A DNA stretch of 64,000 nucleotides from Elainellaceae cyanobacterium (GCA_050331115.1 JBHJHD010000019.1:67390-131389); one strand, 5' to 3'; shown: positions 12,661 through 28,649, numbered from the stretch's first letter. Numbers and translations: made by a program. The notes: generated by a model from the sequence alone, not told the origin.

Positions 12661-13293
12661 CTAGGATTTAGCGATCGCCGGGTAGGCGCGCTTTACGGCC
12701 ACCACGGCCACCGCCGCGATCGCCGCCTTAACGAGGTCGCCAGGGATGAACGCCAGCGAGCCTTGGGCGGCCTGCAGCAGCGGTAGCTCGGAGGCGATCG
12801 CCAGCCAGGGTACGCCGAGGGCGTAGATGACGCCAACGCCGCCAACGACGTTGATTGCAAACGCTAGGGGCATATTCAGCCGCCCCCAAAATTGCTGCAC
12901 TAGCGCCCCAATCACCGCCGCCGCCAGCGGAAACGCCAGCAAAAACCCCCCCGACGGCCCCAAAAACACCCCCAACCCGCCCCGCCCCCCCGACAGCAGC
13001 GGCAGCCCCACCGCCACGAGCACTAGAAACACCAGCAGCGCCAGCCCGCCCCGCCGCATTCCCAAGATTGAGCCCGCCAGCATCACCCCCAAAGACTGAG
13101 CCGTAACAGGCACCGGAATAAAGGGCAGCAGGACAGGCGGAACCAGTCCCAGCACCGCCACTAGGGCCGCGAACAGGGCGGTGTAGACGATATCGCGATT
13201 GGTCATAGTATCCGAAGCATGAGCCGTTAGACTCGATACTAGATTCAAAACATTAGATTCACAAAACATCAGACTCAAAAGTATATCGCTCAA
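12661..13293 (-). CDS. bioY: biotin transporter BioY (ECF S component)
   Basis: Polytopic BioY-like sequence (PVPVTAQSLGVMLAG..., GGLGVFLGPSGGFLLAFPL, IPGDLVK). ATG 13293 overlaps the upstream stop (ATGA). ATG 13206 (MTNRDIV) is an alternative, because 13207-13289 is AT-rich and repeat-bearing. Confidence 0.85.
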   Translation of the reverse strand: MSDILLSLMFCESNVLNLVSSLTAHASDTMTNRDIVYTALFAALVAVLGLVPPVLLPFIPVPVTAQSLGVMLAGSILGMRRGGLALLVFLVLVAVGLPLLSGGRGGLGVFLGPSGGFLLAFPLAAAVIGALVQQFWGRLNMPLAFAINVVGGVGVIYALGVPWLAIASELPLLQAAQGSLAFIPGDLVKAAIAAVAVVAVKRAYPAIAKS

Positions 13294-13889
13294 TCGGTCC
13301 CATACCCGCGCGCGTCTAAGGCCTCAGTCACCTGGTCCGCCAGCCGCAGCGTCTTCACCAGCAGCGGCACCCACAGCGTCAAGGCTGGGCGAGATACCCC
13401 CCGGGCCTGCTGCGCCGCCTGAATTTCCTGTATCTGCGCCAGCAGGACTGGAATAAAGCGCACGGTGAGCATGAGGATTAGGGTAACAGTGTCGACAGGG
13501 ACTCCGAAGCGCACCAGAGGCCGCAGCGATCGCTCCAGCACGTCCATCATGGCGGTAACCTGGGTGGTCAGACTCACGACCGCGGCCAGCAGCACCAGCA
13601 CAACAAAGCGCAGCACCACCGCCACCCCGGCTTCCCAGGTGGTTGCCCAGCCGTGCAGCAGCAGGATGCCCAGCAGCACGGGCATCAGGGGCCGCAGCTG
13701 CTGGGCTACCTGCCGGGGCGGCAGCCGCGCGACGGCGGCACCCAGCGTCACCACACCCAGCGCCACGAGCAAGCCAGCCACTGAGCGCATCCAGAATAGG
13801 CCCACCCCCGCACAGGCCAGCGTCAGCAGCTTGACGGCGGCGGGGAGGCGGTGGATGGGCGAGGCGCGGGGAATATAGAGGCCTAGCAC
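13290..13889 (-). CDS. bioN: ECF transporter transmembrane (T) component, BioN/CbiQ-like
   Basis: 199-aa polytopic protein with a CbiQ-like C-terminal region (ARGVSR...). Sits between an ECF ATPase gene and bioY. Confidence 0.75.
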   Translation of the reverse strand: MLGLYIPRASPIHRLPAAVKLLTLACAGVGLFWMRSVAGLLVALGVVTLGAAVARLPPRQVAQQLRPLMPVLLGILLLHGWATTWEAGVAVVLRFVVLVLLAAVVSLTTQVTAMMDVLERSLRPLVRFGVPVDTVTLILMLTVRFIPVLLAQIQEIQAAQQARGVSRPALTLWVPLLVKTLRLADQVTEALDARGYGTD

Positions 13890-13916
13890 TTTGAGACTTG
13901 CACGTCGAGACTTGAC

Positions 13917-14603
13917 CTATGGACTTTTAGCCATCAGCTTCCGATAGTAGGCGATCGCCGCCCCGGGTTCCCCATCCCAAGCGACGCGACCCTGGCTGAG
14001 CACAATAACCCGGTCAAAATCCAGCAGCAAGTCTAGATCGTGGGACACCACGACGATGGGCTGCGCTAGGCCGCGCAAGAGCTGCTGTACCCGGTTGCGG
14101 TTGCGCAGGTCCAGCAAAGTGGTAGGTTCGTCGAACACCACGTACTGGGGCCGCATCACCATTACGGCGGCGATCGCTAAAAGCTGCTTCTCCCCGCCGC
14201 TGAGGGCGTGGGCAGGCTGATGGCGCAGCGCGCCCAGTCCGTAGCGGGCTAGGGCATCGTCAACCCGCTGCCGCCGAATTGCCGGGGGCAGCTTCAAAAT
14301 CTTCAGCCCAAACTCAACATCTTCCTCAACCGTAGGCAAAATAATCTGGCTATCCGGGTTTTGAAATACGAAGCCCACCTTGCGACGAATCTGGCGAATT
14401 TGCCTGCGAGTGTCCAGACCGTCGATGAGCACCTGCCCTCGATCGGGGAGCACTAGCCCGTTGAGCAGCCGGACTAACGTGCTCTTACCGGAACCGTTGC
14501 TGCCGATGACGCCGATGCGCGGCTCGCCGAGCCGAAGGTCAATGTCCTGTAGGACAGGCCGAGAGGGATCGAAGCAGTGAGAAACGCGCTGTAGCTCAAT
14601 CAC
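13917..14603 (-). CDS. bioM: ECF transporter ATPase component, BioM/CbiO-like
   Basis: Walker A GSNGSGKST, signature LSGGEKQ, Walker B VVFDEPT, H-loop SHD. Confidence 0.85.
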   Translation of the reverse strand: MIELQRVSHCFDPSRPVLQDIDLRLGEPRIGVIGSNGSGKSTLVRLLNGLVLPDRGQVLIDGLDTRRQIRQIRRKVGFVFQNPDSQIILPTVEEDVEFGLKILKLPPAIRRQRVDDALARYGLGALRHQPAHALSGGEKQLLAIAAVMVMRPQYVVFDEPTTLLDLRNRNRVQQLLRGLAQPIVVVSHDLDLLLDFDRVIVLSQGRVAWDGEPGAAIAYYRKLMAKSP

Positions 14604-14933: not shown

Positions 14934-16286
14934 ATGCATATGAAAAATTCAGCTCAGCAGGCTCACCGAGTGGTTATTGTCGGCGGTGGTTTTGGCGGGC
15001 TTTACACGGCCAAGGCGCTGAAGAACGCGCCGGTAGATGTGACCCTGATCGATCGCCGCAACTTCCACCTGTTTCAGCCGCTGCTCTACCAAGTTGCCAC
15101 TGGCACCGTTTCCCCAGCCGACATTTCCTCTCCGCTGCGGGCCATCCTCAGCCACAACCGCAACACCAAGGTGCTCCTAGACGAAGTTGTCGACATCGAC
15201 CCCGAACAAAAGCAAGTGCTCTGTAAGCACGAGACCGTCCCCTATGACACCCTGATTATGGCCACCGGGGTGAGCCATCACTACTTCGGCAACGACCAGT
15301 GGCAAGAGCACGCCCCTGGCCTAAAGACTGTGGAAGATGCGCTGGAAATTCGCCGCCGCATTTTCATGGCTTTTGAGGCCGCCGAGAAGGAGTCTGACCC
15401 GGCGAAGCAGGCGGAATGGCTGACGTTTGTGATTGCGGGGGGTGGCCCCACCGGCGTGGAGCTGGCCGGGGCGATCGCTGAGCTGGCCTACAACATCCTG
15501 CCCCAGGACTTCCGCCGCATCGACACCCGCAAGTCGCGCGTGGTGCTGGTGGAAGGCATGGACCGCGTACTGCCCCCCTACGACCCATCGCTCTCCGAGC
15601 GGGCGGCCGAGTCGCTGCAGGGGCTAGGCGTTAGCGTGGTCACCGATTCCCTCGTTACCGACGTGCAGCCAGACCAGGTGACGCTGAAAAAGAAAGACGG
15701 CACCACCGAAACCATCGGCACGCGCACGGTGCTCTGGGCGGCTGGCGTCCGGGCCTCGAAGATGGGCAAGGTGCTCGCGTCTCGCACCGGCGCTGAGCTA
15801 GACCGGGCGGGCCGCGTGATGGTGGGACCGCGCTTGCACCTAGAAAACTACGACAGCGTCTTTGTAATTGGCGATCTGGCCCATGTGTCCCACCAGGGCG
15901 ATCGCCCGCTGCCGGGGGTCGCGCCCGTAGCCATGCAGGAGGCAAATTACGTGGCGAAGCTGGTTAAGCACCGCCTAGCCGGAAAGGCCGCCCCGGAGTT
16001 TCGCTATGTGGATCGCGGTAGCCTGGCGGTGATCGGCAAGAATGCCGCTGTGGTAGACCTAGGGTTCGTCAAGTTCTCGGGCTTCCTAGCCTGGCTGATC
16101 TGGATCTTTGCCCACATCTACTACCTGATTGAGTTTGACAATAAGCTGGTGGTAATGACGCAGTGGGCCTGGAGCTACTTTACGAGTAAGAGCGGCGCTC
16201 GCCTGATTACGGGACCTGAGGCGTTTAACCTGAGGCTGCCGACCGCGAATCAGACGGTGAAGGAGCGGGAGAAGACGCCTGCTTAG
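14934..16286 (+). CDS. type II NADH dehydrogenase (NDH-2)
   Basis: Two dinucleotide folds (VVIVGGGFGGLY; FVIAGGGPTGVELAG). NFHLFQPLLYQVATG and FVIGD motifs. C-terminal membrane-association helix. Confidence 0.9.
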   Translation: MHMKNSAQQAHRVVIVGGGFGGLYTAKALKNAPVDVTLIDRRNFHLFQPLLYQVATGTVSPADISSPLRAILSHNRNTKVLLDEVVDIDPEQKQVLCKHETVPYDTLIMATGVSHHYFGNDQWQEHAPGLKTVEDALEIRRRIFMAFEAAEKESDPAKQAEWLTFVIAGGGPTGVELAGAIAELAYNILPQDFRRIDTRKSRVVLVEGMDRVLPPYDPSLSERAAESLQGLGVSVVTDSLVTDVQPDQVTLKKKDGTTETIGTRTVLWAAGVRASKMGKVLASRTGAELDRAGRVMVGPRLHLENYDSVFVIGDLAHVSHQGDRPLPGVAPVAMQEANYVAKLVKHRLAGKAAPEFRYVDRGSLAVIGKNAAVVDLGFVKFSGFLAWLIWIFAHIYYLIEFDNKLVVMTQWAWSYFTSKSGARLITGPEAFNLRLPTANQTVKEREKTPA

Positions 16287-16562: not shown

Positions 16563-18350
16563 CTATTCGCCCACAGCTACCCCTTCAGCGGGGTTTGCCG
16601 CGCTGCTAGATTCGCGAAAGCTGTTCAAGCCCCCCGTGGGCCATCCTTTAAGCCAGACCCCAAACCAGTTGTAGTGACGGGCCGCTGCGATCGCCACAAA
16701 CAGCAGGTCCAGGCCCACTACCCCAGCGATTACCAGCGCCGACCCCCCGGTGCCAAAGCCGTAGCTGTGCAGCCCCGTTCCCAGCACGAAGTTCACCCCA
16801 TACCAGGCCATCAGCACCGCGTTGAACGACACCACGCTAGCCACATTGATGCCAAAATCCCCCATCCAGCCCGTCAGCCGGCTGTGGAGCGGTGCCAGGT
16901 AGCACAGGAGAGCAATCAGCGCCCAGGTCTCCTTGGGGTCCCAGCCCCAAAAGCGCCCCCAAGAGAAGTGGGCCCAGATACCGCCCAGGATAATGCCCGC
17001 CGTCAGCAGCAGCACCCCCACCTGCAGCACCCGGTAGTTGAGCTGGGACAGGGTTTTGAACCGCTTTTTTTCGGTGGGGGCAAACAGGTCGTTGCCCAGG
17101 GCGACGTGGCCTAATCCCAGCGCCAGGGCAAAGCTGGCGTAGCTGAGGGCGATGGTGGGCACGTGAATGCTAAGCCAGAAGTTGTCCCGCAGTACGGGCA
17201 CCAGAGGCGAAATGCTGGGGTCGAGGACGGCGGGCAGACTATCCGCCAGAATCAGGCAGACCATCGCCAGGGGAGCCGCCGCTAGCAGGTAGTAGCGGCT
17301 GCGGGAGGTGAGTTCAAACAGGAGGGCGATCGCCGCGATGCCAAAGCCCACCCACACCACCGACTCATACATGTTGGTCACCGGGGGCCGTCCGGCAATC
17401 TGCATGCGCAGGAAAAAGCCATAGCTCTGCACCCCGATACCCGCCGTAAATAGGCCGATGGCGCTCCAGTAGAGGTCCCAGGGTTTGACCCAGAGGGCTA
17501 CCAGCATGACGATGAATGCTAAGCCGTATAGCCACCAGGCCTTGGCAAAGGGGTGGAAGTGGTTGAAATGGACCTCTCGCGCCAGCACCGCGTCGGCAGG
17601 ATAAATCTCAGGACTGAGCTGCTGTAGGCTCGCCTTGAGGCCGTCCGCCAGCGGCCCCACCATGGGTAAATGGGTCGACCCACCCCCATCAGACAAACCA
17701 GCTAGCAAGGCCTGCTGCATCAGGGCAAACTGGGCCATCACCGGGGCGATCGCCTCCGGTGAGTAGAGCTGCGGCGCGGTGCCCAGTCCGGCCCACTTTC
17801 CCTTACTCTCGCTGGGGTGAGGCACCACGGGCAGGCTTTTGTCTCCCACGGCCTGATACAGCAGGTTCAGCCGGCCTTCGATGGTCAGCGCCTCTCGCTC
17901 GTCGCGGCTGAGGTCTACGCCCTCGGCATCTTTCTGGTGCGCCTGCCCCACGATCGCCCCCAGCCCTCGGTTGGCCATTAGCTCTTGAAAGGTGAACTGC
18001 TTGCGTTCTAGGTCTAGGTTCGCTGCCTCTTTCAGGGGACGATAGCTGACCAGCACTACGGGCTCTTCGTTCCAGTTGCGGGTGTTGAACCACATGCCCA
18101 GGTAGGCGGTGAGGTAGTCTTCTCTCTCAACAGTTTCACCGCTGGTGTGGCGGTAGGCGGTGGAGCCGTGGATTTTGGCGATCGTTTCTTTGGCGACGGT
18201 GTCGAGGGGCTTTTTGCGCCCGTCAAGCTGCACGGCCAGGGTACGCAGGCTATCGAGTCCGTCGGGCTGGAACTGGCTGAGGGGCAGCAGTAGCAGGATA
18301 CAGCCTAAACACAGGCCGACCAGGAATTTTATGATATTGATGCCTTTCAT
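16563..18350 (-). CDS. CcsA/ResC-like cytochrome c biogenesis protein (System II haem lyase subunit) with long N-terminal extension
   Basis: WWD box WGRFWGWDPKETW (nt 16923-16961). Conserved His contexts (WLSIH, APLHS, GLHSY). Polytopic C-terminal ~330 aa. ~260-aa extra N-terminal domain behind a signal anchor. Confidence 0.85.
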   Translation of the reverse strand: MKGINIIKFLVGLCLGCILLLLPLSQFQPDGLDSLRTLAVQLDGRKKPLDTVAKETIAKIHGSTAYRHTSGETVEREDYLTAYLGMWFNTRNWNEEPVVLVSYRPLKEAANLDLERKQFTFQELMANRGLGAIVGQAHQKDAEGVDLSRDEREALTIEGRLNLLYQAVGDKSLPVVPHPSESKGKWAGLGTAPQLYSPEAIAPVMAQFALMQQALLAGLSDGGGSTHLPMVGPLADGLKASLQQLSPEIYPADAVLAREVHFNHFHPFAKAWWLYGLAFIVMLVALWVKPWDLYWSAIGLFTAGIGVQSYGFFLRMQIAGRPPVTNMYESVVWVGFGIAAIALLFELTSRSRYYLLAAAPLAMVCLILADSLPAVLDPSISPLVPVLRDNFWLSIHVPTIALSYASFALALGLGHVALGNDLFAPTEKKRFKTLSQLNYRVLQVGVLLLTAGIILGGIWAHFSWGRFWGWDPKETWALIALLCYLAPLHSRLTGWMGDFGINVASVVSFNAVLMAWYGVNFVLGTGLHSYGFGTGGSALVIAGVVGLDLLFVAIAAARHYNWFGVWLKGWPTGGLNSFRESSSAANPAEGVAVGE

Positions 18351-18406: not shown

Positions 18407-20248
18407 TCATGACGGGCGGGTTTGGGCGCCGACCAATTGCGGCGTCGGTTCGGCGATCGCATCTTCAACCGCATCCTCCGATGGGACTTCGGGATGGGGG
18501 GCGGGTTTGCCGCCGCGCGATCGCTTCATTACTGCCGGACCGTAAAACATGGTGCCAACCCCTACCACCACCATCAGCGATCCGATCCAGGTCAGGGCCG
18601 TCACCCACCAGGGCTCCCGCTTCAGCTGTAGGGTCGACTGCTTTAGGTCACCGGGGTTCCAAGACGCCTGGGCCAGTTTCCAGCCGCGAAACCAGGTGGG
18701 GTGGTTCATCCACACCGAGCGTTGGGTGGCGGTGTCGGTTTTGGGGTCAAACAGGGTGATTCTGCTAGTCCACATGGCCACCGACTCGCTGCCTTCGTTG
18801 CGCTCTACGATGAAGTCGTCGAGCTTCACATAGAAGGGAAGCTGCAGCAGCTTAGGCGCAAAAGCGGCGAAGTATTCGCCTTGGGGCGTATCGAGGGCCA
18901 TGGGCTCGCCCCAGGGAAGCCAAAGGGCCTTGCCAGCATTACCTTTGCCAGCATTACCTCTGCCGCCGGCTGCGATCGCCACCTGCAGCGCCGGAAAGCC
19001 TTCGTTAGCCCCGGCCCCAGCCGCAGCGGGGGTTATGGGCACGACCTGCCGCCTCACCTGGGCGTGGTCCAGGCGATTGGCTAGGGAGATTTGGAAGTCG
19101 GCCCAGCCGGGGGCAATAACGTCACCAGGACGTAGCTCGCCCGAGCTAAAGCCCTTCGATGAGAGGGCTGCGTAGAACAGCTGACTATCGGGAGCCGCTA
19201 CGACGCGGAAATAGTCTGACGCCGTGGTGTCGGGCGCGGCATAGGTCGCCTCTAAATCAATCGCATCCCCAGAGCGCACGGGAGGTAGTCCTGGCTTTGC
19301 GAACACAAACCAGCGCTCTTGAGTCTCGTCTTGAGATACATTCACCTGCACCGCCGGGTTACGAAACGCGTTCGAAGCCGATGCTGGCTTACCCGACGTC
19401 AGGCGAAAGTCGGGCCACACCGCAACAATCTCGGCGGTGATGCCGCCCGGAAGCGACACAGACTGGCTTAATTTTTTCTCGATGTCGATGGTGCGATCGC
19501 CTAGCTGCAGCGTGCCATAGGTGGACTGGGACGAAGGCGGGCTGAGAAACTGCTTCAGCTCAACCTCGTCTGCCGCCTGCCGCAGCTCTAGGCGCGCCGG
19601 CCCAATGTCCATCTGGCCATAGCCCAGGGGAGCCAGCGCCAGCCAGCGCTCTAGGGTCTGCCCCATGCGATCGCTGCGGAGCCGCAGCTGCACCGCTAGA
19701 TTCTCGGCGGCTGGACCCTTCGCGCTGTCCCCCTCGACGAAGCGCACCGTCTTAGTGGCGCGATCGCTGTAGCCCAGAAGTGAGAGTCCGGCGAACCGTG
19801 AGGGATGCACCGAGCCATCGGGCTTGACGAAAATATCGGTCTGGCGACGCGTCTGGTCTGGCGACGCCACCTCCAGCAGGTCGCCCTCCACGCGAATCTG
19901 ATTGCCGGGGCCGCTGTCGGTGCGTACTAGCAGCATGCCTTCGGTGCTGAGATGAATGACGGCGGCGGACCCCGCAATAATAATGATCAAACCCCAGTGG
20001 GTGATAGCGAAGCCCACCTTGCGGGGGCCGCGCCAGGGATAGCGGCTGAGGGTGGAAACGCCTAGGTTAACCGCCAGTAAAAACATTAGCCCGCCAAACC
20101 AGGCGCTCTTGTAAATTTCTCTTTGAACCGTGGCGGAGCCGACGTTCGACTCATAGAAAGTCGCGCCAATTAGAATGATGGCGATCGCCACAATAAGCGG
20201 AACTGCTAGGCGAATTGAGCCTAAAAAACGAATAGCCTTGGGGGGCAT
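18407..20248 (-). CDS. ResB/CcsB-like cytochrome c biogenesis protein
   Basis: ResB-like architecture: N-terminal TM pair with conserved His (FAITHWGLIIIIAG), large soluble domain, and a C-terminal FYVKLDDFIVE...W.NHP...KLAQASW...REPWW + TM segment. Confidence 0.8.
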   Translation of the reverse strand: MPPKAIRFLGSIRLAVPLIVAIAIILIGATFYESNVGSATVQREIYKSAWFGGLMFLLAVNLGVSTLSRYPWRGPRKVGFAITHWGLIIIIAGSAAVIHLSTEGMLLVRTDSGPGNQIRVEGDLLEVASPDQTRRQTDIFVKPDGSVHPSRFAGLSLLGYSDRATKTVRFVEGDSAKGPAAENLAVQLRLRSDRMGQTLERWLALAPLGYGQMDIGPARLELRQAADEVELKQFLSPPSSQSTYGTLQLGDRTIDIEKKLSQSVSLPGGITAEIVAVWPDFRLTSGKPASASNAFRNPAVQVNVSQDETQERWFVFAKPGLPPVRSGDAIDLEATYAAPDTTASDYFRVVAAPDSQLFYAALSSKGFSSGELRPGDVIAPGWADFQISLANRLDHAQVRRQVVPITPAAAGAGANEGFPALQVAIAAGGRGNAGKGNAGKALWLPWGEPMALDTPQGEYFAAFAPKLLQLPFYVKLDDFIVERNEGSESVAMWTSRITLFDPKTDTATQRSVWMNHPTWFRGWKLAQASWNPGDLKQSTLQLKREPWWVTALTWIGSLMVVVGVGTMFYGPAVMKRSRGGKPAPHPEVPSEDAVEDAIAEPTPQLVGAQTRPS

Positions 20249-20698
20249 AGCGATCTCAATAGATTGAGGGTCATTTACTCACTTTTAGAGCTTTACTTGG
20301 AAACATTTGCAGCCTTTGATACAAAATCGAAATTTAGGCATTCAGAATTCGCATCTAAAAGTACACAAATTGCATGACTTCTTTGAGCTTCTGGGTGCTC
20401 AGATGGGTGCTCAGAAGGCGCATTCAATATTTACATCAAAGCTATGCAGTATTTGAGAATAAAAGTTGAAAAGCGTATTTGATTTTACAAAAGTACAGGA
20501 GCTATCTATCTATGGTCAGATTTGAGAAGCGCACCTTTACTATGACTTTTAAAGAGCTTAAGGATTTCCCCAACAGCTTCTGTAAGCGATTCTAGAGGCT
20601 ATTTTTGTCTTGCCTTAATTGCTGTGGGATGCGTTAGGTGTCGAATTTGACAGTTGAGGGATGGCCGTTTTTCTAAAGTCTATTCAGGCTAATCCCAC

Positions 20699-20740
20699 GT
20701 CAGCCAAGGTGTTAATAAAGTCAGCCAAGGCATTAATAAA
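20699..20740. repeat. 21-nt tandem repeat x2 in the divergent ccsB/globin spacer
   Basis: GTCAGCCAAGGTGTTAATAAA / GTCAGCCAAGGCATTAATAAA, about 100 nt upstream of the globin start. A 12-nt x2 repeat TGGGTGCTCAGA is at 20392-20415. Confidence 0.85.
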
Positions 20741-20839: not shown

Positions 20840-21874
20840 ATGGTTTCAAATATCGATCAAAAAGCGGCGCTAAAGGTTGAGCTTTTAGAGCAAAGCTTTG
20901 AAAAAGTGAAGCCCCACGCCAACGACTTTGCAGCGAGCTTCTACGAGAACCTGTTTGTAGATTATCCGGCAGCTGAGCCGCTGTTTGCCGAAACGGATGT
21001 GGCAGCTCAGAGTAAAAAGCTGCTGGCATCTCTTGTGTTTGTGGTTGAGAACTTGCGTAACCCCGGTGCGCTGACGGGTGCCCTAAAGGGTTTAGGGGCT
21101 CGCCACGTGGAATACGGTGCGCTGCCCGCCCACTATCCCCTAGTCGGGAATACGCTACTCAAGACCTTCGATCAGTACTTAGGCGCTGACTGGACCCCTG
21201 AGACCCAACAGGCCTGGACTGAAGCCTACGGCGTGATCACCGAGACCATGCTTGAAGGGGCTGATTACGCCGAAGAAGACGTGCAGCTTGCGCCGCCTCC
21301 CGCCGAGGTAGACGAAGCCACCGGGCTAAAGGTTGGCCTTTTGGAGCAGAGCTTCGAGAAGGTGAAGCCCCATGCAAATGAGTTTGCGATCAGCTTCTAC
21401 GAGAATTTGTTTGCGGACTACCCGGCCGCCAAGCCGCTGTTCGCGCAAACGGACGTGACGGCACAGAGCAAAAAGCTGCTGGCGTCCCTCGTGTTTGTGG
21501 TTGAGAACTTACGTAAGCCGGGTGAGCTAACCGGCGCGCTAAAAGGGCTGGGCGCTCGCCACGTTCAGTATGGTGCCTTGCCTGAGCACTACCCTCTAGT
21601 GGGCAGCAGCTTGCTAAAGACTTTTGATCAGTACCTCAAAGGCGACTGGACCCCCGAAGTCGAGCAAGCCTGGATTGACGCCTACGGCCTGATCACTGAG
21701 GTGATGCTAGAAGGGGCCGACTACTCTCCAGAAGCGGTGCAGCTTAGCCCCGTGGCCGCACCCAGCTCTACTCCTGCTGCCCCTACTGCCGAAGCTGGCC
21801 TCAAGGCGGGCCCGCTACTGGGTGGGCTAATTGGCGGTGGCGCGGTGCTGCTTGTCATCCTGCTGCTGCTTTAG
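20840..21874 (+). CDS. tandem two-domain globin with C-terminal transmembrane tail
   Basis: Two ~140-aa 3-on-3 globin-like units (SFYENLF... QSKKLL ... LGARHV.YG). By my manual alignment, 116/140 residues are identical between units. Ends in a GPLLGGLIGGGAVLLVILLLL hydrophobic tail. No signal peptide. Confidence 0.8.
   Translation: MVSNIDQKAALKVELLEQSFEKVKPHANDFAASFYENLFVDYPAAEPLFAETDVAAQSKKLLASLVFVVENLRNPGALTGALKGLGARHVEYGALPAHYPLVGNTLLKTFDQYLGADWTPETQQAWTEAYGVITETMLEGADYAEEDVQLAPPPAEVDEATGLKVGLLEQSFEKVKPHANEFAISFYENLFADYPAAKPLFAQTDVTAQSKKLLASLVFVVENLRKPGELTGALKGLGARHVQYGALPEHYPLVGSSLLKTFDQYLKGDWTPEVEQAWIDAYGLITEVMLEGADYSPEAVQLSPVAAPSSTPAAPTAEAGLKAGPLLGGLIGGGAVLLVILLLL
20870..21745 (+). repeat. 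intragenic tandem duplication (2 x 456-nt period) encoding the two globin domains
   Basis: Unit 1 is 20870-21289 and unit 2 is 21326-21745. The units are clearly alignable at nucleotide level, with many synonymous differences. Confidence 0.9.
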
Positions 21875-21912: not shown

Positions 21913-22593
21913 ATGGCATCTCGAGGTCGATCCAACAGGCAACCTAGGCAACAGCGATCGCAAGCTGGCGGCAGAGGCCGTTCGCTCATCAGCTTAAGAA
22001 CGGCGATCGCTGTTGCCTGCATCGTTCTGGTGGGCTGGTTCTCGGCAGCCTTTGCCCTAGATAATAAGCAGGCTTTCTTACCGGGGGAGACCTCTGTAGG
22101 TCACTACCTCGTAGAAGCCTCCTGTAGCTCCTGTCACGAGGGATTCAAGCCCGTCAGCAACGACACCTGCATGCGCTGCCACGAAGCCGAGCTAGCCCAA
22201 GATGCCCACGGCCCTAAGAAGTTCATGGACCCCCGCTGGGCGGGCGAGCTAGCCGAGATTGAGGCGCTGACCTGCACCACCTGCCATAACGAGCATGTGC
22301 ATATGTTTGGCCGGGGGGTGCACCTGCAGCCCGACCTCTGTATGACCTGTCACGAGGGGATCATTAGCGGCGAGCTGAAGAGCCACGACGGCTTCACTCC
22401 AGACGGCTGCTGGACCGCTGGCTGCCACAACTACCACGACCACCGCACGATTTCCACCGGGTTTCTGAGGAAAAACCTCGACCAGCCCCCCATGCTGCCG
22501 GTGCAGGTTGTCCCAGAGCGCGTTGTAACAACGGAGCTAGAGACACCTCCAGCAGCGGATTTAGGCGAGGAGTTTCTGGGAGGTGAGACATGA
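21913..22593 (+). CDS. membrane-anchored multihaem cytochrome c (4 CXXCH + 1 CX4CH)
   Basis: CSSCH(71-75), CMRCH(86-90), CTTCH(121-125), CMTCH(143-147), CWTAGCH(166-172). Arg-rich N-terminus followed by one TM helix. Confidence 0.85.
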   Translation: MASRGRSNRQPRQQRSQAGGRGRSLISLRTAIAVACIVLVGWFSAAFALDNKQAFLPGETSVGHYLVEASCSSCHEGFKPVSNDTCMRCHEAELAQDAHGPKKFMDPRWAGELAEIEALTCTTCHNEHVHMFGRGVHLQPDLCMTCHEGIISGELKSHDGFTPDGCWTAGCHNYHDHRTISTGFLRKNLDQPPMLPVQVVPERVVTTELETPPAADLGEEFLGGET

Positions 22594-23432
22594 CGGTAAA
22601 TAAGCGGCTTGTCGTGTCCTGTCTATTGGCTCTGGCGCTGCTGCTGGGCTGGGCTACCCCGGCCTGGGGCGATAGGACCGGAGACGCGGTGGACCAGGCC
22701 GCATTGGATGAAACCACTCAGCTTTGGAAAACCAGCGCCCACGCCCTCAACGACATCAACTGCTCTAGCTGCCACCAAGACGAAGAGACCAAGGCGTTTG
22801 TGGCCGACCCCACTTACGAGAGCTGCCAATCCTGCCACGAGCAGTCGGTAGACACCTTTCTGCTGGGTAAGCACGGCATTCGCTTACTCGAAGACGAGTC
22901 TCCCCTGATGCCCGCCATGGCGCGACTGCCCATGAAGCAGGCTGCCCACGACCTGCAGATGACCTGCAGCACCTGCCACGATGCCCACTCGGTGAACACC
23001 GTCCAGGCCGCCGTCGACTCCTGCCTCACCTGCCACAACGACACCCACTCCCTCAACTACGAAAACTCCCAGCACGCCCAGCTGTTCGCCGCCGACCTGG
23101 TAGAGCTGCCTCGGCCCTCCGGCCCAGGGCTGCCCCGGCCCTCCGGCAGCGCGGTGAGCTGCGCCACCTGCCACCTGCCGCGCCACGAGGTGGAGACGGG
23201 CGGCGAGACGGTGACCCTGGTCAACCACAACAACACCTACACCCTGCTGCCCCGCGATCGCATGGTGGGAGAGGTGTGCATGAACTGCCACGGCGTGGAG
23301 TACAGCTACAACAGTATTTTTGACGATGACCTGGTGGAGGCCAACTTCGATGCGCCGCCCACCCTATCCCTTGAGACCTTCGACCTAGTTCGCGCCCTCG
23401 AAGAGCGGCGAGCCGGTCAAGAAGGCGAATAG
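22590..23432 (+). CDS. secreted hexahaem cytochrome c
   Basis: Signal peptide (LALALLLGWATPAWG/D). CSSCH(58), CQSCH(79), CSTCH(126), CLTCH(145), CATCH(191), CMNCH(230). ATG overlaps the previous stop (ATGA). Confidence 0.85.
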   Translation: MTVNKRLVVSCLLALALLLGWATPAWGDRTGDAVDQAALDETTQLWKTSAHALNDINCSSCHQDEETKAFVADPTYESCQSCHEQSVDTFLLGKHGIRLLEDESPLMPAMARLPMKQAAHDLQMTCSTCHDAHSVNTVQAAVDSCLTCHNDTHSLNYENSQHAQLFAADLVELPRPSGPGLPRPSGSAVSCATCHLPRHEVETGGETVTLVNHNNTYTLLPRDRMVGEVCMNCHGVEYSYNSIFDDDLVEANFDAPPTLSLETFDLVRALEERRAGQEGE

Positions 23433-23561: not shown

Positions 23562-24218
23562 ATGACAATGCTAGAGAACTGGATCAGCGCTATCCGCACC
23601 CGAACGGTGGCGTTCATTGCTATCATTTTGGCCGTCGCCGTGACGGCGATCTCTTGCAGCGGTGGCGGTACCGCCACCACCGAGGCATCCGCTGGCGTCG
23701 CCCCTGAGCTGGTGGCCGACTATATTCACACCGTGCTGGCGGCTGACCGCACCGCCTACACCAAGCACGTGGTCAACCGCGTCAAAACTCTAGAGGGTAA
23801 GGCTAAAGAGGCGGGCGTGCTTGAGGTGGAATCCACTGAGGGCTGGCAGCAGACGGACGGTATTCCCCTGCCGGCGCAGATGTTCCGCCTAGGCTCTGAG
23901 ATCGCCAACGACTCGGGCTACTTCACCTACAACCTGATCTCGCCCTGGTATATCAATGACAGCCACGCCCCCAAAGGCGAGTTTGAGGAGACTGCCGTCC
24001 AAGCCATGATCGATACGGGCGAACCCGTCAAGGAATATCAGGAGATCAGCGGTCAAACCTACTTCTCCGCGATGTATCCCGACAACGCCGTGGCAGAAGC
24101 CTGCGTCAGCTGCCACAATACTCACCCTGTTCACCTGGAGCGCTACCCCGATAAGCAGTTCGTGATGGACGAAGTGATGGGCGGCATTGTGATCAACATT
24201 CCGCTAGAGGGCGCTTGA
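23562..24218 (+). CDS. DUF3365/Tll0287-like c-type haem lipoprotein
   Basis: Lipoprotein-like signal (VAVTAISC/SGGG). A single CVSCH (aa 181-185, nt 24102-24116) near the C-terminus, in the context YPDNAVAEACVSCHNTHP that I recall as typical of the Tll0287 PAS-like haem c family. Confidence 0.7.
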   Translation: MTMLENWISAIRTRTVAFIAIILAVAVTAISCSGGGTATTEASAGVAPELVADYIHTVLAADRTAYTKHVVNRVKTLEGKAKEAGVLEVESTEGWQQTDGIPLPAQMFRLGSEIANDSGYFTYNLISPWYINDSHAPKGEFEETAVQAMIDTGEPVKEYQEISGQTYFSAMYPDNAVAEACVSCHNTHPVHLERYPDKQFVMDEVMGGIVINIPLEGA

Positions 24219-24310: not shown

Positions 24311-25027
24311 ATGAGCACCCCTCATCCCCACTCTCCACCGAATCTCCAGACATCGGCACTCACCACACACACCGATGAAGCGCCCCCTCTAGTAGAGCAG
24401 CCGCTCACCGCAAAAGCGCCCCGTCCTCGGGGCATTCAGCCCAGCCTCAAAGTGCTGATCGGCCTCACCTTACTGACGGCGCTGCTGCTGCTGCCCTTCG
24501 CCTTTAGCGCCATCTACCTCGACCGGCTGCGGGAAGAATCCGTAGAACTGCACCGGTTTATGCGCGGGGAACTATACAAGCAGGGGACCGGCTATGCAGC
24601 CTTGGGCTTTGTGCTGCTAGAGGTCATGCTCAGCGTCCGCAAGCGCAGCCGCAGCTGGATTGGCCGCATCAAGCTGCCGGGGTCGATGCAGCTGTGGCGC
24701 AGCGTTCATGTTTTCCTAGGGGTGGGGCTGGTGGCCATGGTGCTGGTCCACACACTGGGGTCCAACGGCCTCAACTTTAACGCGGCGCTGCTGTGGGTGT
24801 TCTTTGCCACAACGCTAACGGCGCTGGTGGGCGTAGTAGCCGAAACCGGCATTCTAGAGTCCACCCGCAGCTACTTTGGCAAGCTGCCCTGGAGCCCGGT
24901 CCCGCTCACCAAAGGCCCCTTAATTCGAGGGCTGCGATCGCTCTGGCTGGTGAGCCATATCTTCTTTGTCTGCGTGTTCGCCGTGATGCTGGCGTTTCAC
25001 GTTGCCTTGGCGTATTACTACCAGTAA
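24311..25027 (+). CDS. 5-TM membrane protein, predicted dihaem b-type cytochrome (ferric-reductase-domain-like)
   Basis: Five hydrophobic helices. His133-X13-His147 in predicted TM3 and His216-X13-His230 in predicted TM5. Function is inferred from the His spacing only. Confidence 0.6.
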   Translation: MSTPHPHSPPNLQTSALTTHTDEAPPLVEQPLTAKAPRPRGIQPSLKVLIGLTLLTALLLLPFAFSAIYLDRLREESVELHRFMRGELYKQGTGYAALGFVLLEVMLSVRKRSRSWIGRIKLPGSMQLWRSVHVFLGVGLVAMVLVHTLGSNGLNFNAALLWVFFATTLTALVGVVAETGILESTRSYFGKLPWSPVPLTKGPLIRGLRSLWLVSHIFFVCVFAVMLAFHVALAYYYQ

Positions 25028-25230: not shown

Positions 25231-25704
25231 ATGGCTACAGAGCGATTTGATTTGGAGAAAAACCGAGCCAGCTGGATTGTAGCTGCGCTCGTGGGGCTGT
25301 TTGCGATCGCCGCTGTTGTTGTGACGCGCCCAGACGGGTCATCGCCGAGTCTTTCAGCAGTGTCGGGGCTAATGAGCTTGAAGGCTACGGCCCAAGCGGC
25401 AATGCCCTACGACATCGCCATGGCCGATCCAAAACCCACCCTAGTCGAGTTCTATGCTGACTGGTGCACCACCTGTCAGGCCCTAGCGCCAACCCTGCAG
25501 GACATCCACGAGCAGGCAGGCGATCAGATCAATTTCGTCATGCTGGATATTGACGATCCCCAGTGGCGACAGCAGGTCAATCAGTTTCAGGTCAGCGGTG
25601 TTCCTCACCTAGCGCTGCTAGATTCAAGCCACGTCGTTGCAGACAGCTTTGTAGGGCGCGTTCCCCGACAAGTCTTAGTGGCTCGCATTGCCGACCTGCT
25701 TTAG
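25231..25704 (+). CDS. membrane-anchored thioredoxin-like protein (TxlA/CcsX/ResA-like)
   Basis: N-terminal TM anchor, then a thioredoxin fold with a WCTTC active site (aa 78-82; cysteines C79/C82) and a downstream GVP cis-Pro motif. Confidence 0.8.
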   Translation: MATERFDLEKNRASWIVAALVGLFAIAAVVVTRPDGSSPSLSAVSGLMSLKATAQAAMPYDIAMADPKPTLVEFYADWCTTCQALAPTLQDIHEQAGDQINFVMLDIDDPQWRQQVNQFQVSGVPHLALLDSSHVVADSFVGRVPRQVLVARIADLL

Positions 25705-25732: not shown

Positions 25733-25963
25733 ATGGCAATACTGCATCGATTTCTTCTATTGCTAGAGTTTCTAGATCGGCTCATCGACATCGCTGAGGC
25801 TTCAGCCGATTCGCTCACCGCGCCAGTCGCCACTGCCGCTGCGGCCTGTCTGCTGAGCTATCAGGCGCTGCTGCTTGCGGGCTGTGATGTCCTGTCCTCA
25901 GCGGTCCTCTCCAGCGCGATCGCCCTGGCGTTAAACTGTGGATTCAACCACCCCAATACTTAA
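25733..25963 (+). CDS. small hypothetical protein (76 aa)
   Basis: ATG 25733 is preceded by AGGAGG at 25718-25723. The stop overlaps the ChaN-like start (TAATG). No recognisable family. Confidence 0.4.
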   Translation: MAILHRFLLLLEFLDRLIDIAEASADSLTAPVATAAAACLLSYQALLLAGCDVLSSAVLSSAIALALNCGFNHPNT

Positions 25964-26883
25964 TGCGCCCAATCCAACGCGCCCAACTTAACGTGCCTAT
26001 GACAGTTCCCGTGTCCCGCTGGCGTCTCGGCTGTAGTGCCTTAAGCATTGCCCTGCTGCTCACGGTTCCAGCGGCCTGCTCAATCGCCGATGAGCTGCCT
26101 ACGGCTAGCGTCCCGCTAACCCTGTCTAGCGAAGCGGCGGATCTTGCCCCCCTACTCGTGGACGTGGTTTACCTTGGAGAACGCCACGACAGCGCCGAAG
26201 ACCACGCTGCCCAGCTGGAGATCATCCAGGCGCTCTACGCCGAGGACCCCAACATGGCGATCGCCCTGGAGATGTTTCAGCGCCCGTTTCAGCCTGTGCT
26301 CGATCGCTACCTGGCGGGGGAAATCTCGGAGGCGGCGCTGGTGGCCCAAAGCGAATACGAGCAGCGCTGGGGCTTCCCCTGGGAATATTACGCCCCTATC
26401 CTGCAGTTTGCCCAGGCCCACCAGCTTCCCGTGCTGGCCCTCAACGCCCCCAGCGAGGTGGTGCGACAGGTGGCGCGGGAAGGCCTTGGGAGTCTGCAGG
26501 AGCAAGACTTTCGCTACATTCCGCCGCTGGATCAGCTCGATACCAGCGGCGCTGAGTATCGAGAATTCGTCGGGGCGGCATTTGGCGGCCACGGCGACCA
26601 CGGCAGCTTCGATTTCGAAAATTTCTTTGCCGCCCAGGTCGTATGGGACGAAACGATGGCGGCCACCGTTGCGTCGTTCAAGCGGGCCTCACCGGAGACG
26701 CGGGTGGTGGTGCTGGCAGGTAGCGGCCACGTCATGTACGGCTACGGCATCCCCAGCCGAGTGGCCCGGCGTTTAGAAGGACAGGTGGGCGAGCCCCTGC
26801 AGCAAACGACGGTGCTCATCAATCCGCCGGAGGCGCTAGCGGCGTCGGAGGATGCCGCAGATGTCTTTTGGCGTAGCGAGTAG
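25963..26883 (+). CDS. ChaN-like haem-binding lipoprotein (Cofac_haem_bdg/Tiki-type fold)
   Basis: Signal with lipobox-like TVPAAC. VVYLGERHDSAEDHAAQLEII, IALEMFQRPFQPVLDRY and LPVLALNAP resemble the ChaN/PF04187 family. Confidence 0.7.
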   Translation: MRPIQRAQLNVPMTVPVSRWRLGCSALSIALLLTVPAACSIADELPTASVPLTLSSEAADLAPLLVDVVYLGERHDSAEDHAAQLEIIQALYAEDPNMAIALEMFQRPFQPVLDRYLAGEISEAALVAQSEYEQRWGFPWEYYAPILQFAQAHQLPVLALNAPSEVVRQVAREGLGSLQEQDFRYIPPLDQLDTSGAEYREFVGAAFGGHGDHGSFDFENFFAAQVVWDETMAATVASFKRASPETRVVVLAGSGHVMYGYGIPSRVARRLEGQVGEPLQQTTVLINPPEALAASEDAADVFWRSE

Positions 26884-27365: not shown

Positions 27366-28649
27366 GTGATAAAAGGGGGTTTTTCCCCAACTTTCGTAAC
27401 TACGGTAACTTCTGTGACTGCAAAATCAGAGATTAGTGGCTCCTCAGACCACAGCGATGCCCATCACATTGCCCGCAGCGCTCTAGATGGTTCAATCGAT
27501 CGCCAGCTTAGCGCCTACGACTACCATCTCCCTGAGGCCTGCATTGCCCAGCATCCCGCCTCTCCCCGCGATCGCTCTCGGCTGCTGGTGGTTGACGGCC
27601 CGACAGGCTGCCGTCACCAAACCTTTTGCGATCTGCCGCAGTGGCTGCGGGCGGGCGACCTGCTGGTGCTCAACAATACCCGGGTAATTCCGGCGCGGCT
27701 TATAGGCCGCAAGGCCAGCGGCCTTGCCGTAGAGGTGTTTTTACTGGAGGAGCGAGGGCCTGACTGCTGGCACGCCCTCGTTAAGCCGGGTAAGCGGCTA
27801 AAGCCCGGTGTTGAAGTCTATTTTGATGGACTCAATGCTCCTCTCAATACACCGACTGATGCACGGGCTACTGGTTCACCGGTTAGCAGCTCACCAGCTG
27901 TCGTTGGCGAAGTCCTAGCTGTAGAGCCAGCCACCGGAGGGCGATTGATTAAGTTTAGGGTTCCCGATAAGCGGCCGTTTCGCTCACTGCTGCCCCAGCT
28001 GGGGCAGGTGCCGCTCCCCCCTTATATCACCAGCACTGACGTTGGGGCAGAGCGGTATCAGACGGTCTACGGCGATCGCCCTGGTGCGGTGGCCGCGCCC
28101 ACCGCGGGCCTGCACTTTACCCCAGAGCTGCTCCAGACCTTAGAGGCCATGGGTGTGGGCGTGGCGACGCTGACGCTGCACGTGGGCATCGGAACCTTTC
28201 GCCCGGTGGAGCGTGAAGACATTGCGGCCCACAAAATGCACGGTGAGTGGATTGAGGTAACGCCGGCGGTGGTCGCTGCGGTTCAGCAGACGCGGGCGCG
28301 GGGTGGGCGGGTGATCGCGGTGGGAACCACCAGCGTTCGCGCCCTAGAGGGAGCCGCGCAGGGCGAAACGCTGCAGCCCTACTGCGGCCAAACCAGCATC
28401 TTCATCTATCCGGGCTACCGCTGGCGGGTCATCGACGGCCTGATCACCAATTTCCACCTGCCCAAATCCAGCCTGATGATGATGGTGAGCGCCCTAATTG
28501 GCCGTCAGCGCCTGCTGGATCTCTATCAGCTGGCGATCGCCCAGGCCTACCGGTTTTACTCTTTTGGCGACGCGATGCTAATTCTGCCCGAAGCCCAGCT
28601 GCCCGAAGCCCAGCTGCCTGAAGCCCAGCTGCCCAACGCTCAGCTCTAG
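27366..28649 (+). CDS. queA: S-adenosylmethionine:tRNA ribosyltransferase-isomerase
   Basis: YDYHLPEACIAQHP, LLVLNNTRVIPARL, PLPPYI, AAPTAGLHFT, VGTTSVRALE and FYSFGDAML motifs. Start is uncertain (GTG 27366 or 27414). The C-terminus carries a 15-nt x4 repeat (PEAQL). Confidence 0.92.
   Translation: MIKGGFSPTFVTTVTSVTAKSEISGSSDHSDAHHIARSALDGSIDRQLSAYDYHLPEACIAQHPASPRDRSRLLVVDGPTGCRHQTFCDLPQWLRAGDLLVLNNTRVIPARLIGRKASGLAVEVFLLEERGPDCWHALVKPGKRLKPGVEVYFDGLNAPLNTPTDARATGSPVSSSPAVVGEVLAVEPATGGRLIKFRVPDKRPFRSLLPQLGQVPLPPYITSTDVGAERYQTVYGDRPGAVAAPTAGLHFTPELLQTLEAMGVGVATLTLHVGIGTFRPVEREDIAAHKMHGEWIEVTPAVVAAVQQTRARGGRVIAVGTTSVRALEGAAQGETLQPYCGQTSIFIYPGYRWRVIDGLITNFHLPKSSLMMMVSALIGRQRLLDLYQLAIAQAYRFYSFGDAMLILPEAQLPEAQLPEAQLPNAQL

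Follow-up and report, generated by a model that had tools for sequence, protein, structure and literature searches.

A tandem, tail-anchored globin at the head of a cyanobacterial multihaem cytochrome cluster: a putative cytoplasmic terminus of a trans-membrane haem wire

In a 64,000-nucleotide stretch of DNA from an Elainellaceae cyanobacterium (GCA_050331115.1 JBHJHD010000019.1:67390-131389; the whole stretch is hereafter called the window), we analysed a gene at 20840-21874 that encodes two globin units followed by a C-terminal membrane tail, and that heads a cluster of multihaem cytochrome genes. This tandem, tail-anchored, membrane-protein-coupled M-family protein is a new form of single-domain globin. 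We propose, with a probability of about 45%, that a dedicated haem wire across the membrane ends in this globin on the cytoplasmic side, where the globin would have a flavohaemoglobin-like function in the chemistry of nitric oxide (NO) or other N-oxides. The terminal position is proposed because the globin is the only cytoplasmic redox protein of the cluster and is fused, in one lineage, to the putative di-haem membrane protein of the cluster. The NO or N-oxide chemistry is proposed from the conserved NO-dioxygenase-type pocket, the nitrogen-assimilation context and a precedent in Bradyrhizobium (see below).

The gene comprises the following parts:

20840-21874, + strand: tandem globin gene, 344 amino acids (open reading frame and Pfam PF00042).
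20861-21289, + strand: globin unit 1, residues 8-150 (hidden Markov model bounds), with Y35 = TyrB10, F49 = PheCD1, Q57 = GlnE7, H89 = HisF8 and Y99 = TyrG5.
21317-21745, + strand: globin unit 2, residues 160-302 (hidden Markov model bounds), with Y187, F201, Q209, H241 and Y251 at the same places.
21746-21799, + strand: flexible tether rich in Pro, Ala, Ser and Thr, residues 303-320 (within 308-335, the AlphaFold2 (AF2) predicted local-distance difference test score (pLDDT) is <50).
21800-21871, + strand: C-terminal tail anchor, residues 321-344, GPLLGGLIGGGAVLLVILLLL (hydropathy), which reaches the stop codon without a charged residue.

The Pfam Globin family (PF00042) matches the 344-residue open reading frame in two stretches (E 3.7e-40; 137.5 bits against a cut-off of 22), and unit 1 and unit 2 each contain SFYENLF, QSKKLL and LGARHV.YG. 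An earlier interpretation of this DNA made without database searches (hereafter, the sequence-only reading) had described two complete globin units in a single open reading frame, identical at 116 of 140 positions by manual alignment, and it had regarded the duplication as old and both copies as selected; all three points hold. Our recount of residues 11-150 against 163-302 gave the same 116/140 identical residues, with 320/420 identical bases. The 100 base differences are distributed over the three codon positions as 17/14/69, and the 140 codon pairs consist of 62 identical, 54 synonymous-only and 24 non-synonymous ones. By the Nei-Gojobori method applied to residues 8-150 and 160-302, the proportion of synonymous differences (pS) is 0.67, the synonymous distance dS is 1.72 (saturated) and the non-synonymous distance dN is 0.125, i.e. 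a dN/dS of about 0.07. From this saturated dS and low dN/dS, the duplication is old in this genome and both units are under strong purifying selection. No recent gene conversion is visible between the two units in the window.

The unit motifs align with TyrB10, GlnE7, HisF8 and TyrG5 of Vitreoscilla haemoglobin (Vgb), and with the matching conserved motifs of Hell's Gate globin I (HGbI); the B10, CD1, E7, F8 and G5 residue names used here follow the numbering of Vgb. The residues F34/Y35, F49, Q57, H89 and Y99 of unit 1, and F186/Y187, F201, Q209, H241 and Y251 of unit 2, are invariant in 53 homologues; they include H89 and H241, the two histidines already regarded as proximal in the sequence-only reading. 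As to the equivalent of GluH23, a glutamate occurs one position off in the HMMER alignment to Vgb.

As for the globin lineage, the nearest solved relatives retrieved by phmmer are HGbI (3s1i/3ubc, E ~1e-27, with 3e-27 for 3s1i), the HGbRL globin, Vgb (1vhb), thermoglobin and the globin domains of flavohaemoglobins (1cqx). The AF2 model (53 homologues) has a pLDDT of ~90 for both units and is disordered at residues 308-335. Its best natural match by Foldseek is 3s1i (TM-score 0.86, root-mean-square deviation 1.7 Å, 38% identity), followed by neuroglobins and Vgb. The NCBIfam model of NO-inducible flavohaemoproteins (NF009805) scores 135.9 bits, far under its cut-off of 432, because the tandem globin has no reductase domain and the globin part alone matches. 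The protein comprises no domain besides the globins and the trans-membrane tail, and does not have the hallmarks of the sensor globins (S family). Hence, of the two lineages between which the sequence-only reading had hesitated, i.e. flavohaemoglobin or single-domain globin versus sensor globin, the first is the correct one: the units are M-family (flavohaemoglobin/Vgb-type) 3/3 single-domain globins, closest to HGbI.

The family is not rare, since a search of 5.8 billion proteins with the tandem globin returned 690 clusters at E<=1e-5. Of these, the 120 that were listed come almost entirely from cyanobacteria, and they bear no other names than "globin family protein", "globin" or, in the annotation of the Joint Genome Institute (JGI), "nitric oxide dioxygenase". 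Two units occur in 101 of them and three in the other 19, the third unit having arisen several times, as seen from the closest pair being sometimes units 2 and 3 and sometimes units 1 and 2. The mean similarity is 0.81 between units within one protein versus 0.75 between unit 1 and unit 2 across proteins, which indicates a long-lasting concerted evolution of the units; across the family, hardly any residue is specific to the position of a unit in the chain. A GTDB-wide scan yielded 39 loci (numbered L001 onwards), 38 of them cyanobacterial and one an actinobacterial flavohaemoglobin-like outlier.

Hydropathy identified residues 321-344 as the sole hydrophobic segment of the tandem globin, the preceding 320 residues being hydrophilic and devoid of a signal peptide, as the sequence-only reading had noticed. 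The protein thus has two sequence features of tail-anchored proteins, a single C-terminal trans-membrane segment and no N-terminal signal sequence. A hydrophobic C-terminal 18-mer with almost no charged residues is kept in 117/120 listed homologues, where it is preceded by a linker with a median of ~27 residues. It comprises conserved glycines, G(-17)xxGGG (i.e. G-17/G-14/G-13/G-12), and its final residues are hydrophobic; single-unit relatives bear the same tail. In one lineage an amphipathic C-terminus occurs in place of the hydrophobic tail, which also points to a membrane location. The idea that a frameshift produced the tail, or that a faulty assembly produced the duplication, has a negligible probability and is refuted by the conservation of the tail in these 117 homologues, by the divergence of the units (100/420 bases) and by the recurrence of the architecture in >100 independent database clusters and ~30 genomes. 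The third restart of the globin sequence that the sequence-only reading had perceived ahead of the tail did not survive comparison with shuffled sequences: the best local alignment of residues 303-344 with a globin unit scores 31, versus 24 +/- 4 in shuffles (p ~0.07), and does not lie at the unit start. A PEP-CTERM or GlyGly-CTERM sorting signal was also considered for the tail and rejected by inspection, since the protein lacks both an N-terminal signal peptide and a PEP motif, and its helix is not followed by a cluster of basic residues. In the Prochlorotrichaceae homologue P0108, the tail is replaced by the amphipathic, Lys-rich C-terminus SLLQKVKSFIKKLIS, which may be an alternative in-plane membrane anchor.

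The globin gene is followed by the MHC1 gene after a gap of 39 nt, and the genes of the multihaem cytochromes MHC1 and MHC2 overlap by 4 nt. The following gene order was assessed in the ~30 cyanobacterial loci with enough flank and is kept in them: (Rieske <-) CcsB-like <- ResB-like | globin -> MHC1 -> MHC2 -> Tll0287-like -> 5-TM -> thioredoxin -> small membrane protein -> ChaN-like, where 5-TM denotes a protein with five trans-membrane helices. The globin gene is therefore the first one of a cytochrome operon, in agreement with the sequence-only reading. The genera bearing the cluster include Leptolyngbya, Acaryochloris, Halomicronema, Nodosilinea and Geitlerinema. In the window, the other genes of the cluster are as follows:

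21913-22593, + strand: MHC1, signal-anchor helix and penta-haem cytochrome c (Pfam Cytochrom_c3_2; 4 CXXCH and one CX4CH, CWTAGCH).
22590-23432, + strand: MHC2, signal peptide and hexa-haem cytochrome c (six CXXCH).
23562-24218, + strand: Tll0287-like (sCache_haem) mono-haem c protein with a lipoprotein-like signal (PF11845, E 7.6e-19).
24311-25027, + strand: 5-TM membrane protein, putative di-haem-b trans-membrane electron carrier (two H-x13-H pairs; N-terminus predicted cytoplasmic).
25231-25704, + strand: membrane-anchored periplasmic thioredoxin, CcsX/ResA-like (PF00085, E 1e-18; N-terminal trans-membrane segment).
25733-25963, + strand: small hydrophobic protein of ~76 amino acids (from the first ATG of a TTG open reading frame starting at 25688).
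25963-26883, + strand: ChaN-like haem-binding protein (Cofac_haem_bdg) with a signal or anchor, cluster-conserved (PF04187, E 7.9e-71).
18407-20248, - strand: ResB-like (System II) paralogue, 613 amino acids, divergent (PF05140, E 1.5e-14).
16563-18350, - strand: CcsB/CcsA-type haem-handling protein (Cytochrom_C_asm), with the WWD motif WGWD and a 300-residue N-terminal extension, cluster-conserved (PF01578, E 7e-33).
42444-42917, - strand: PetC3-like Rieske [2Fe-2S] lipoprotein, with a Tat signal (RREF) and a lipobox (tblastn).

The haem-binding patterns of the cytochromes are strictly kept. The 4 CXXCH and one CX4CH of MHC1 are identical in 34/34 orthologues, six CXXCH occur in MHC2 in 32/32 orthologues and a single CXXCH occurs in the Tll0287-like protein in 30/30. 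MHC1 has no match among the sequences of the PDB, and the best PDB match of MHC2 is the HAO-like 6h5l (E 9e-8). Stand-alone Tll0287-type (sCache_haem) proteins have been reported to show a redox-type behaviour, and not to be NO sensors (bioRxiv 10.64898/2026.02.01.703092). The ResB-like gene adjoins the globin gene in every locus with enough flank. Both the ResB-like and the CcsB-like proteins are divergent, enlarged paralogues; the divergence of the latter follows from its TIGR03144 score of 164 bits, under the cut-off of 187.6. The unusual CX4CH site is in keeping with a private maturation system of this kind. As for the ~76-residue hydrophobic protein, it is found by tblastn with 36-62% identity in most cluster loci, with no family match. 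The sequence-only reading had spoken of an operon of respiratory-type cytochromes: the cytochromes are confirmed, the respiratory type is not, as they apparently form a dedicated, nitrogen-regulated module with 12 c-type haems and not an ordinary respiratory one.

The gene of the PetC3-like Rieske protein adjoins the CcsB-like gene in 23 other loci, and lies 24 kb away in the window. The best PDB match of this protein (E 2.7e-21) is a chain of 110 residues, 5cxm, whose deposited name is 'cytochrome b6/f complex iron-sulfur subunit' and which we take to be PetC3. PetC3 has served to mark the inner membrane on its periplasmic face (PMC12341915), which suggests that the periplasm is the P side of the cluster system. 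The usual place of the Rieske gene is occupied in the window by an NDH-2 gene (14934-16286). NDH-2 was considered as the electron donor of the cluster and dismissed, because its presence is not conserved: apart from the window, a single locus has it, and there distantly.

The 5-TM protein, which has 487 homologues, contains two H-x13-H pairs located at matching depths in the membrane, H133/H147 in the third trans-membrane helix and H216/H230 in the fifth one, which are invariant in 65 homologues and sit on the AF2 helices 125-152 and 201-237. Judging from the K/R-rich loops (111-127 and 181-206), its N-terminus and one His pair are predicted to face the cytoplasm, and its second His pair the periplasm. 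Two kinds of fusions identify the cytoplasmic partner of this protein. In P0214, which is represented by three independent contigs, one globin unit of the family is fused to the N-terminus of the 5-TM protein, and the fusion gene stands between a Tll0287-like and a thioredoxin gene, as in the cluster. This fusion puts the globin ahead of the first trans-membrane helix of a protein predicted to be N-in from its K/R-rich loops; the tail-anchored globin is accordingly predicted to be N-in, and it would be in physical contact with the 5-TM protein. The second kind was found by a profile search of 1.8 billion representatives, in which the remote 5-TM relatives appeared to be the C-terminal domains of ~660-residue proteins. 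The N-terminal part of these proteins comprises either Pyr_redox_2, Rubredoxin_C and BFD [2Fe-2S] domains, or cNMP, BFD and FNR-like domains, and both H-x13-H pairs are retained. These reductase fusions characterise the 5-TM domain as a module that transfers electrons across the membrane and has a redox partner on the cytoplasmic side, at its N-terminus.

The reductase-5TM family numbers ~3,000 members, and we examined six of its proteobacterial loci (L049-L054). The module is an operon of four to five genes. Its order, intact in 5/6 loci (the sixth one, L053, is a decayed copy), is: NirB-like NAD(P)H/FAD/[2Fe-2S] reductase-5TM, undecahaem cytochrome, Tll0287-like protein, cytochrome c and globin. 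The undecahaem cytochrome (431-509 amino acids) corresponds to MHC1 and MHC2 fused together, with a trans-membrane anchor, 4 CXXCH, one CX4CH and 6 CXXCH. The mono-haem cytochrome c occurs in 4/5 intact loci, L054 having at this place a 369-residue protein without a Pfam match. The globin, found in 5/6 loci, is soluble, 121-142 residues long, and possesses TyrB10 and GlnE7. BLASTP supports homology with the cyanobacterial cluster for four shared components: the globin, the multihaem cytochrome, the Tll0287-like protein and the 5-TM domain. An ANTAR (NasT-like) gene stands upstream of the module in 4/6 loci (directly adjacent in three of them; truncated to 41 amino acids in L053), NrtABC-type transporter genes lie beside the module in 3/6 loci, all three among the loci with ANTAR, and L050 has an additional NasA-like molybdenum enzyme. 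From these neighbours, the module sits in nitrate-assimilation loci, the place where nirBD is usually found. No ANTAR-target leader RNA was detected by Rfam in the proteobacterial loci. At L049, which has ccm genes (System I), the globin is still kept.

A nitrogen link is also suggested by the region upstream of the cyanobacterial globin gene, which in the window contains, ~320 nt ahead of the ATG:

20475-20516, + strand: candidate NtcA-type promoter, with the box GTATTTGATTTTAC (GTA-N8-TAC) at 20475-20488, a 22-nt spacing and the -10 element TATGGT at 20511-20516.

This box, spacing and -10 element agree with the sequence features of class II NtcA promoters. Canonical NtcA-activated promoters have the same consensus and spacing, GTAN8TAC lying ~22 nt upstream of TAN3T (PMC3898017). 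Counted in the same loci from which the motif was defined, GTAN8[T/A]AC-N20-24-TAN3T occurs in 15/29 cluster loci versus 1.6 in shuffles, and the extended form GTN-N8-NAC-AAAA-N16-20-TAN3T in 23/30 loci versus 0.08 in shuffles, at positions -171 to -392 from the ATG (22/23 within -224 to -392). An alignment of 20 loci displayed no conserved block upstream of the gene beyond this promoter and the ribosome-binding site, and the ~320-nt 5' untranslated region (5'UTR) contains no Rfam riboswitch or conserved RNA. A generic scan of the operon for sigma-70 promoters and terminators returned no more hits than in shuffles. Judging from its promoter sequence, the cluster is probably transcribed under nitrogen control. 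A Nrt/Cmp-type ABC transporter operon directly follows the cluster in the Nodosilinea lineage; L048 and L032 are the loci with such a transporter beside the cluster.

Two other sequence elements were noticed in this region. A tandem 21-nt direct repeat, GTCAGCCAAGG(TG/CA)TTAATAAA x2, at 20699-20740, lies inside the presumed 5'UTR of the globin gene and is absent from all other loci examined. The element TTTGCAGC..TTGATACAAAA, at 20306-20326, is shared by roughly twelve loci, where it precedes the divergent ResB-like gene by 60-150 nt and is probably the promoter or operator of that gene.

As to the surroundings of the cluster, a pentapeptide-repeat protein of ~308 amino acids flanks it in 22 loci (L001, L003, L004, L044 and 18 more), with no copy in the 64-kb window. 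Upstream of the cluster, the window carries genes for an oxygen-dependent coproporphyrinogen III oxidase of haem synthesis (7760-8818, - strand) and for a BioY/CbiQ/ABC transporter of the energy-coupling factor (ECF) type (12661-14603, - strand), neither of which displayed a conserved linkage to the cluster. Downstream, a QueA-like (queuosine synthesis) open reading frame (27366-28649, + strand) ends in three LPEAQ pentapeptide repeats.

From the above data, we propose the following haem wire. The two Vgb/flavohaemoglobin-type globins would face the cytoplasm, held on the cytoplasmic membrane by a tether of ~20-30 residues and the tail helix, and their haems would form the N side of the wire. 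Within the membrane, the wire would consist of the 5-TM protein with two bis-His haem-b sites. On the P side, it would comprise 12 c-type haems (in the anchored MHC1, MHC2 and the Tll0287-like protein) and, usually, the PetC3-like Rieske protein. Its own System II set (the ResB/CcsB paralogues, thioredoxin and the ChaN-like protein) would ensure the maturation. The ferric globin haem would be re-reduced via the N-side haem of the 5-TM protein, and the TyrB10/GlnE7 pocket would then turn over O2 and NO during nitrate or nitrite assimilation, by NO dioxygenation to nitrate or a related N-oxide chemistry; the globin is probably a NO dioxygenase. The membrane cytochromes would thereby replace the flavin reductase of flavohaemoglobin, and tandem or triple tethered units would raise the local concentration of haem at the membrane. 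The sequence-only reading had suggested gas chemistry or sensing tied to the electron chain. The chemistry gains support from the globin-5TM fusion and from the presence of the globin in the proteobacterial module (5/6 loci), and sensing is unlikely because the tandem globin has no output domain.

Several points weigh against this proposal. Haem binding by the globin units is putative, as is haem b in the 5-TM protein, for which it is predicted from a layout that is the classic one of di-haem trans-membrane electron carriers. The Pfam scores of the 5-TM protein lie below threshold (Ni_hydr_CYTB PF01292, 20.7 versus 30.1; DUF4405 PF14358, 16.6-23.6 versus 26.7), its AF2 model (pLDDT 74) gave no Foldseek hit with E<0.7 in the PDB, and its profile returned spurious hits only (a PPR protein) among the PDB sequences. 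The cluster globin is a single unit without a tail in L032, L034 and L048, which shows that tethering and duplication are not essential. Tail-anchored single-unit globins also occur outside the cluster (L035, 6257-6898; L038, 2355-2957) in unrelated gene contexts, which proved uninformative. The promoter motif was counted in the very loci that had served to define it, and NtcA is the presumed regulator by resemblance to its consensus. The position of the proteobacterial reductase on the cytoplasmic side implies an outward flow of electrons in that system, where the globin would then be a side branch and not a terminus. Lastly, 12 c-type haems and a private maturation system seem extravagant merely to re-reduce a globin, and it is probable that the periplasmic cytochromes act on some substrate themselves. 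There is also a wider proposal, which we regard as possible but doubtful: the cluster and its proteobacterial counterpart would be an undescribed nitrogen-regulated haem wire (globin, di-haem 5-TM protein, 11-12 c-type haems and, in cyanobacteria, Rieske protein) performing N-oxide chemistry on both sides of the membrane. It would include, for example, a periplasmic multihaem nitrite, NO or hydroxylamine reductase replacing NirBD or NirA, and coupled to the globin NO dioxygenase.

An outward flow is also at the core of a different explanation, which is unlikely, namely that the globin haems relay electrons outward via the 5-TM protein to the periplasmic cytochromes, for the reduction of a substrate located in the periplasm or outside the cell (nitrite, NO, hydroxylamine or a metal). 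The cyanobacterial globin would then stand in for the NirB-like flavoprotein domain of the proteobacterial homologues. Consistently, the globin occupies in P0214 the position of the reductase in the proteobacterial relatives, outward flow is expected in these reductase-fused relatives, and no cytoplasmic redox protein besides the globin is encoded in the cluster. However, a globin is not a dehydrogenase and would itself require a reductant, its strictly conserved TyrB10/GlnE7 pocket is unneeded for a plain relay, and its ferrous haem would bind O2 in an oxygenic phototroph; furthermore, the proteobacterial modules hold both a reductase and a separate globin, so that a mere replacement of the reductase by the globin does not account for them. 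Vgb and other O2 binders of high affinity typically have such a TyrB10/GlnE7 pocket, and the tethered globins might deliver O2 at the membrane, or remove it as an oxidase-like sink fed by the wire, in order to protect an O2-sensitive nitrogen metabolism under nitrogen limitation, as proposed for Nostoc cyanoglobin and Vgb. The GlbN protein of Nostoc commune is a peripheral membrane protein expressed under nitrogen limitation; for Vgb, an interaction with cytochrome bo has been reported. The predicted membrane location of the globin and the nitrogen-regulated type of its promoter are in line with such a role in O2 management, which we nonetheless judge improbable: no terminal oxidase or nif gene occurs in or near the cluster at any locus examined, and the proteobacterial module adjoins nitrate-assimilation genes, not oxidases.

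The fusion and tethering of the globin to the 5-TM protein could also be understood if the globin was an allosteric cap and not a catalyst, the binding of O2 or NO switching the flow of electrons through the 5-TM protein. HGbI, its closest solved relative, indeed changes its haem coordination upon lipid binding (PMC11203436). Nevertheless, a gas-gated regulator is quite improbable, as the units belong to the M family and not to the S family, the protein has no transmitter domain, and a copy number varying from 1 to 3 units suits mass-action chemistry better than stoichiometric gating. Finally, the divergent pairing of the globin gene with resB/ccsB, together with the presence in the cluster of its own System II genes, thioredoxin and a ChaN-like haem-binding protein, would be expected if the tethered globins stored haem b and handed it to the private ResB/CcsB proteins for the 12 c-type haems. 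This explanation is highly improbable: the fusion partner of the globin is the 5-TM protein and not CcsB, the distal-pocket residues for diatomic ligands are invariant, and the proteobacterial module with System I genes retains its globin. Our preferred explanation is that of the globin as the terminus of the haem wire.

If the wider haem-wire proposal is true, this globin would be the first one to operate as the terminal subunit of a membrane electron-transfer complex, and in cyanobacteria the tail-anchored tandem globin would be the sole cytoplasmic redox partner of that complex. Cyanobacteria are generally regarded as devoid of multihaem cytochromes, and the known cyanobacterial globins are truncated haemoglobins of the soluble kind. 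The present cluster is widespread, and it joins 12 c-type haems and their private maturation system with a putative new di-haem membrane protein and a membrane-tethered multi-globin. Re-reduction of the globin through the membrane would provide a new answer to the question of what reduces the single-domain bacterial globins. It would also constitute a new electron path across the cyanobacterial cytoplasmic membrane, which bears on the handling of NO and nitrite and on extracellular electron transfer in phototrophs. The size of the reductase-5TM family and its location in nitrate-assimilation loci suggest that the proteobacterial version is an overlooked component of bacterial nitrogen assimilation.

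A full-text search of the literature found no paper describing the tandem tail-anchored globin family or the cluster, and comparison with known systems situates them as follows. Like HGbI (3s1i), Vgb (1vhb) and Campylobacter Cgb (2wy4), to which it is 31-38% identical, the window protein combines the 3/3 fold, TyrB10, GlnE7, HisF8 and TyrG5 with the absence of a reductase domain; unlike these single-domain globins, it has two units (elsewhere one or three), a tether and a trans-membrane tail, and it heads a multihaem-cytochrome cluster. A bacterial globin covalently joined to a membrane domain is also found in GsGCS, the membrane-bound globin-coupled sensor of Geobacter sulfurreducens, for which a role in membrane-bound electron or proton transfer was proposed (PMC8076648). 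In 2021, the proteins known to combine a globin and trans-membrane segments were limited to GsGCS and GLB-33 of C. elegans, and the 168 database sequences of the GsGCS-like globin-PsiE type were all S-family globins (PMC8076648). GsGCS differs from the window protein by its S-family globin, its 4-TM PsiE domain without haem ligands, its non-tandem structure and its gene context. The 5-TM protein resembles NOX, FRE, MsrQ and cytochrome b561/FdnI by its two His pairs spaced by 13 residues on two trans-membrane helices, and its relatives, similarly to NOX/FRE-type proteins, are fused to cytoplasmic NAD(P)H flavoprotein modules for trans-membrane electron transfer. It differs from all these proteins in having five helices instead of six (or four), and neither sequence searches nor Foldseek matched it significantly to any of their solved members.

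The closest functional parallels are the flavohaemoglobins and the globin system of Bradyrhizobium. As in flavohaemoglobin (Hmp/FHP), the window protein has a globin domain of the same lineage, a presumed dedicated supply of electrons and, likely, the same chemistry; the difference is that the FAD/NAD(P)H domain is missing, the presumed partners being the membrane di-haem protein and c-type cytochromes. In Bradyrhizobium, the narK-bjgb-flp-nasC system uses a single-domain globin and a flavoprotein reductase to detoxify the NO produced by nitrate assimilation, under the control of NasS-NasT (PMC4724949). The likeness lies in a single-domain globin whose gene accompanies nitrate-assimilation genes, with nitrogen control by NasS-NasT there and, here, presumably through an ANTAR gene or an NtcA-type box, and in a detoxification of NO during nitrate assimilation, which is proposed for the present systems. 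The Bradyrhizobium system differs in lacking cytochromes both in the membrane and in the periplasm, in having a soluble globin with a monomeric sequence, and in keeping its reductase as a separate soluble protein. This reductase, Flp, is presumably similar to the FAD/NAD(P)H part at the N-terminus of NirB, the part that is fused to the 5-TM domain in the proteobacterial module. Taken as a unit, the module might represent a new kind of system.

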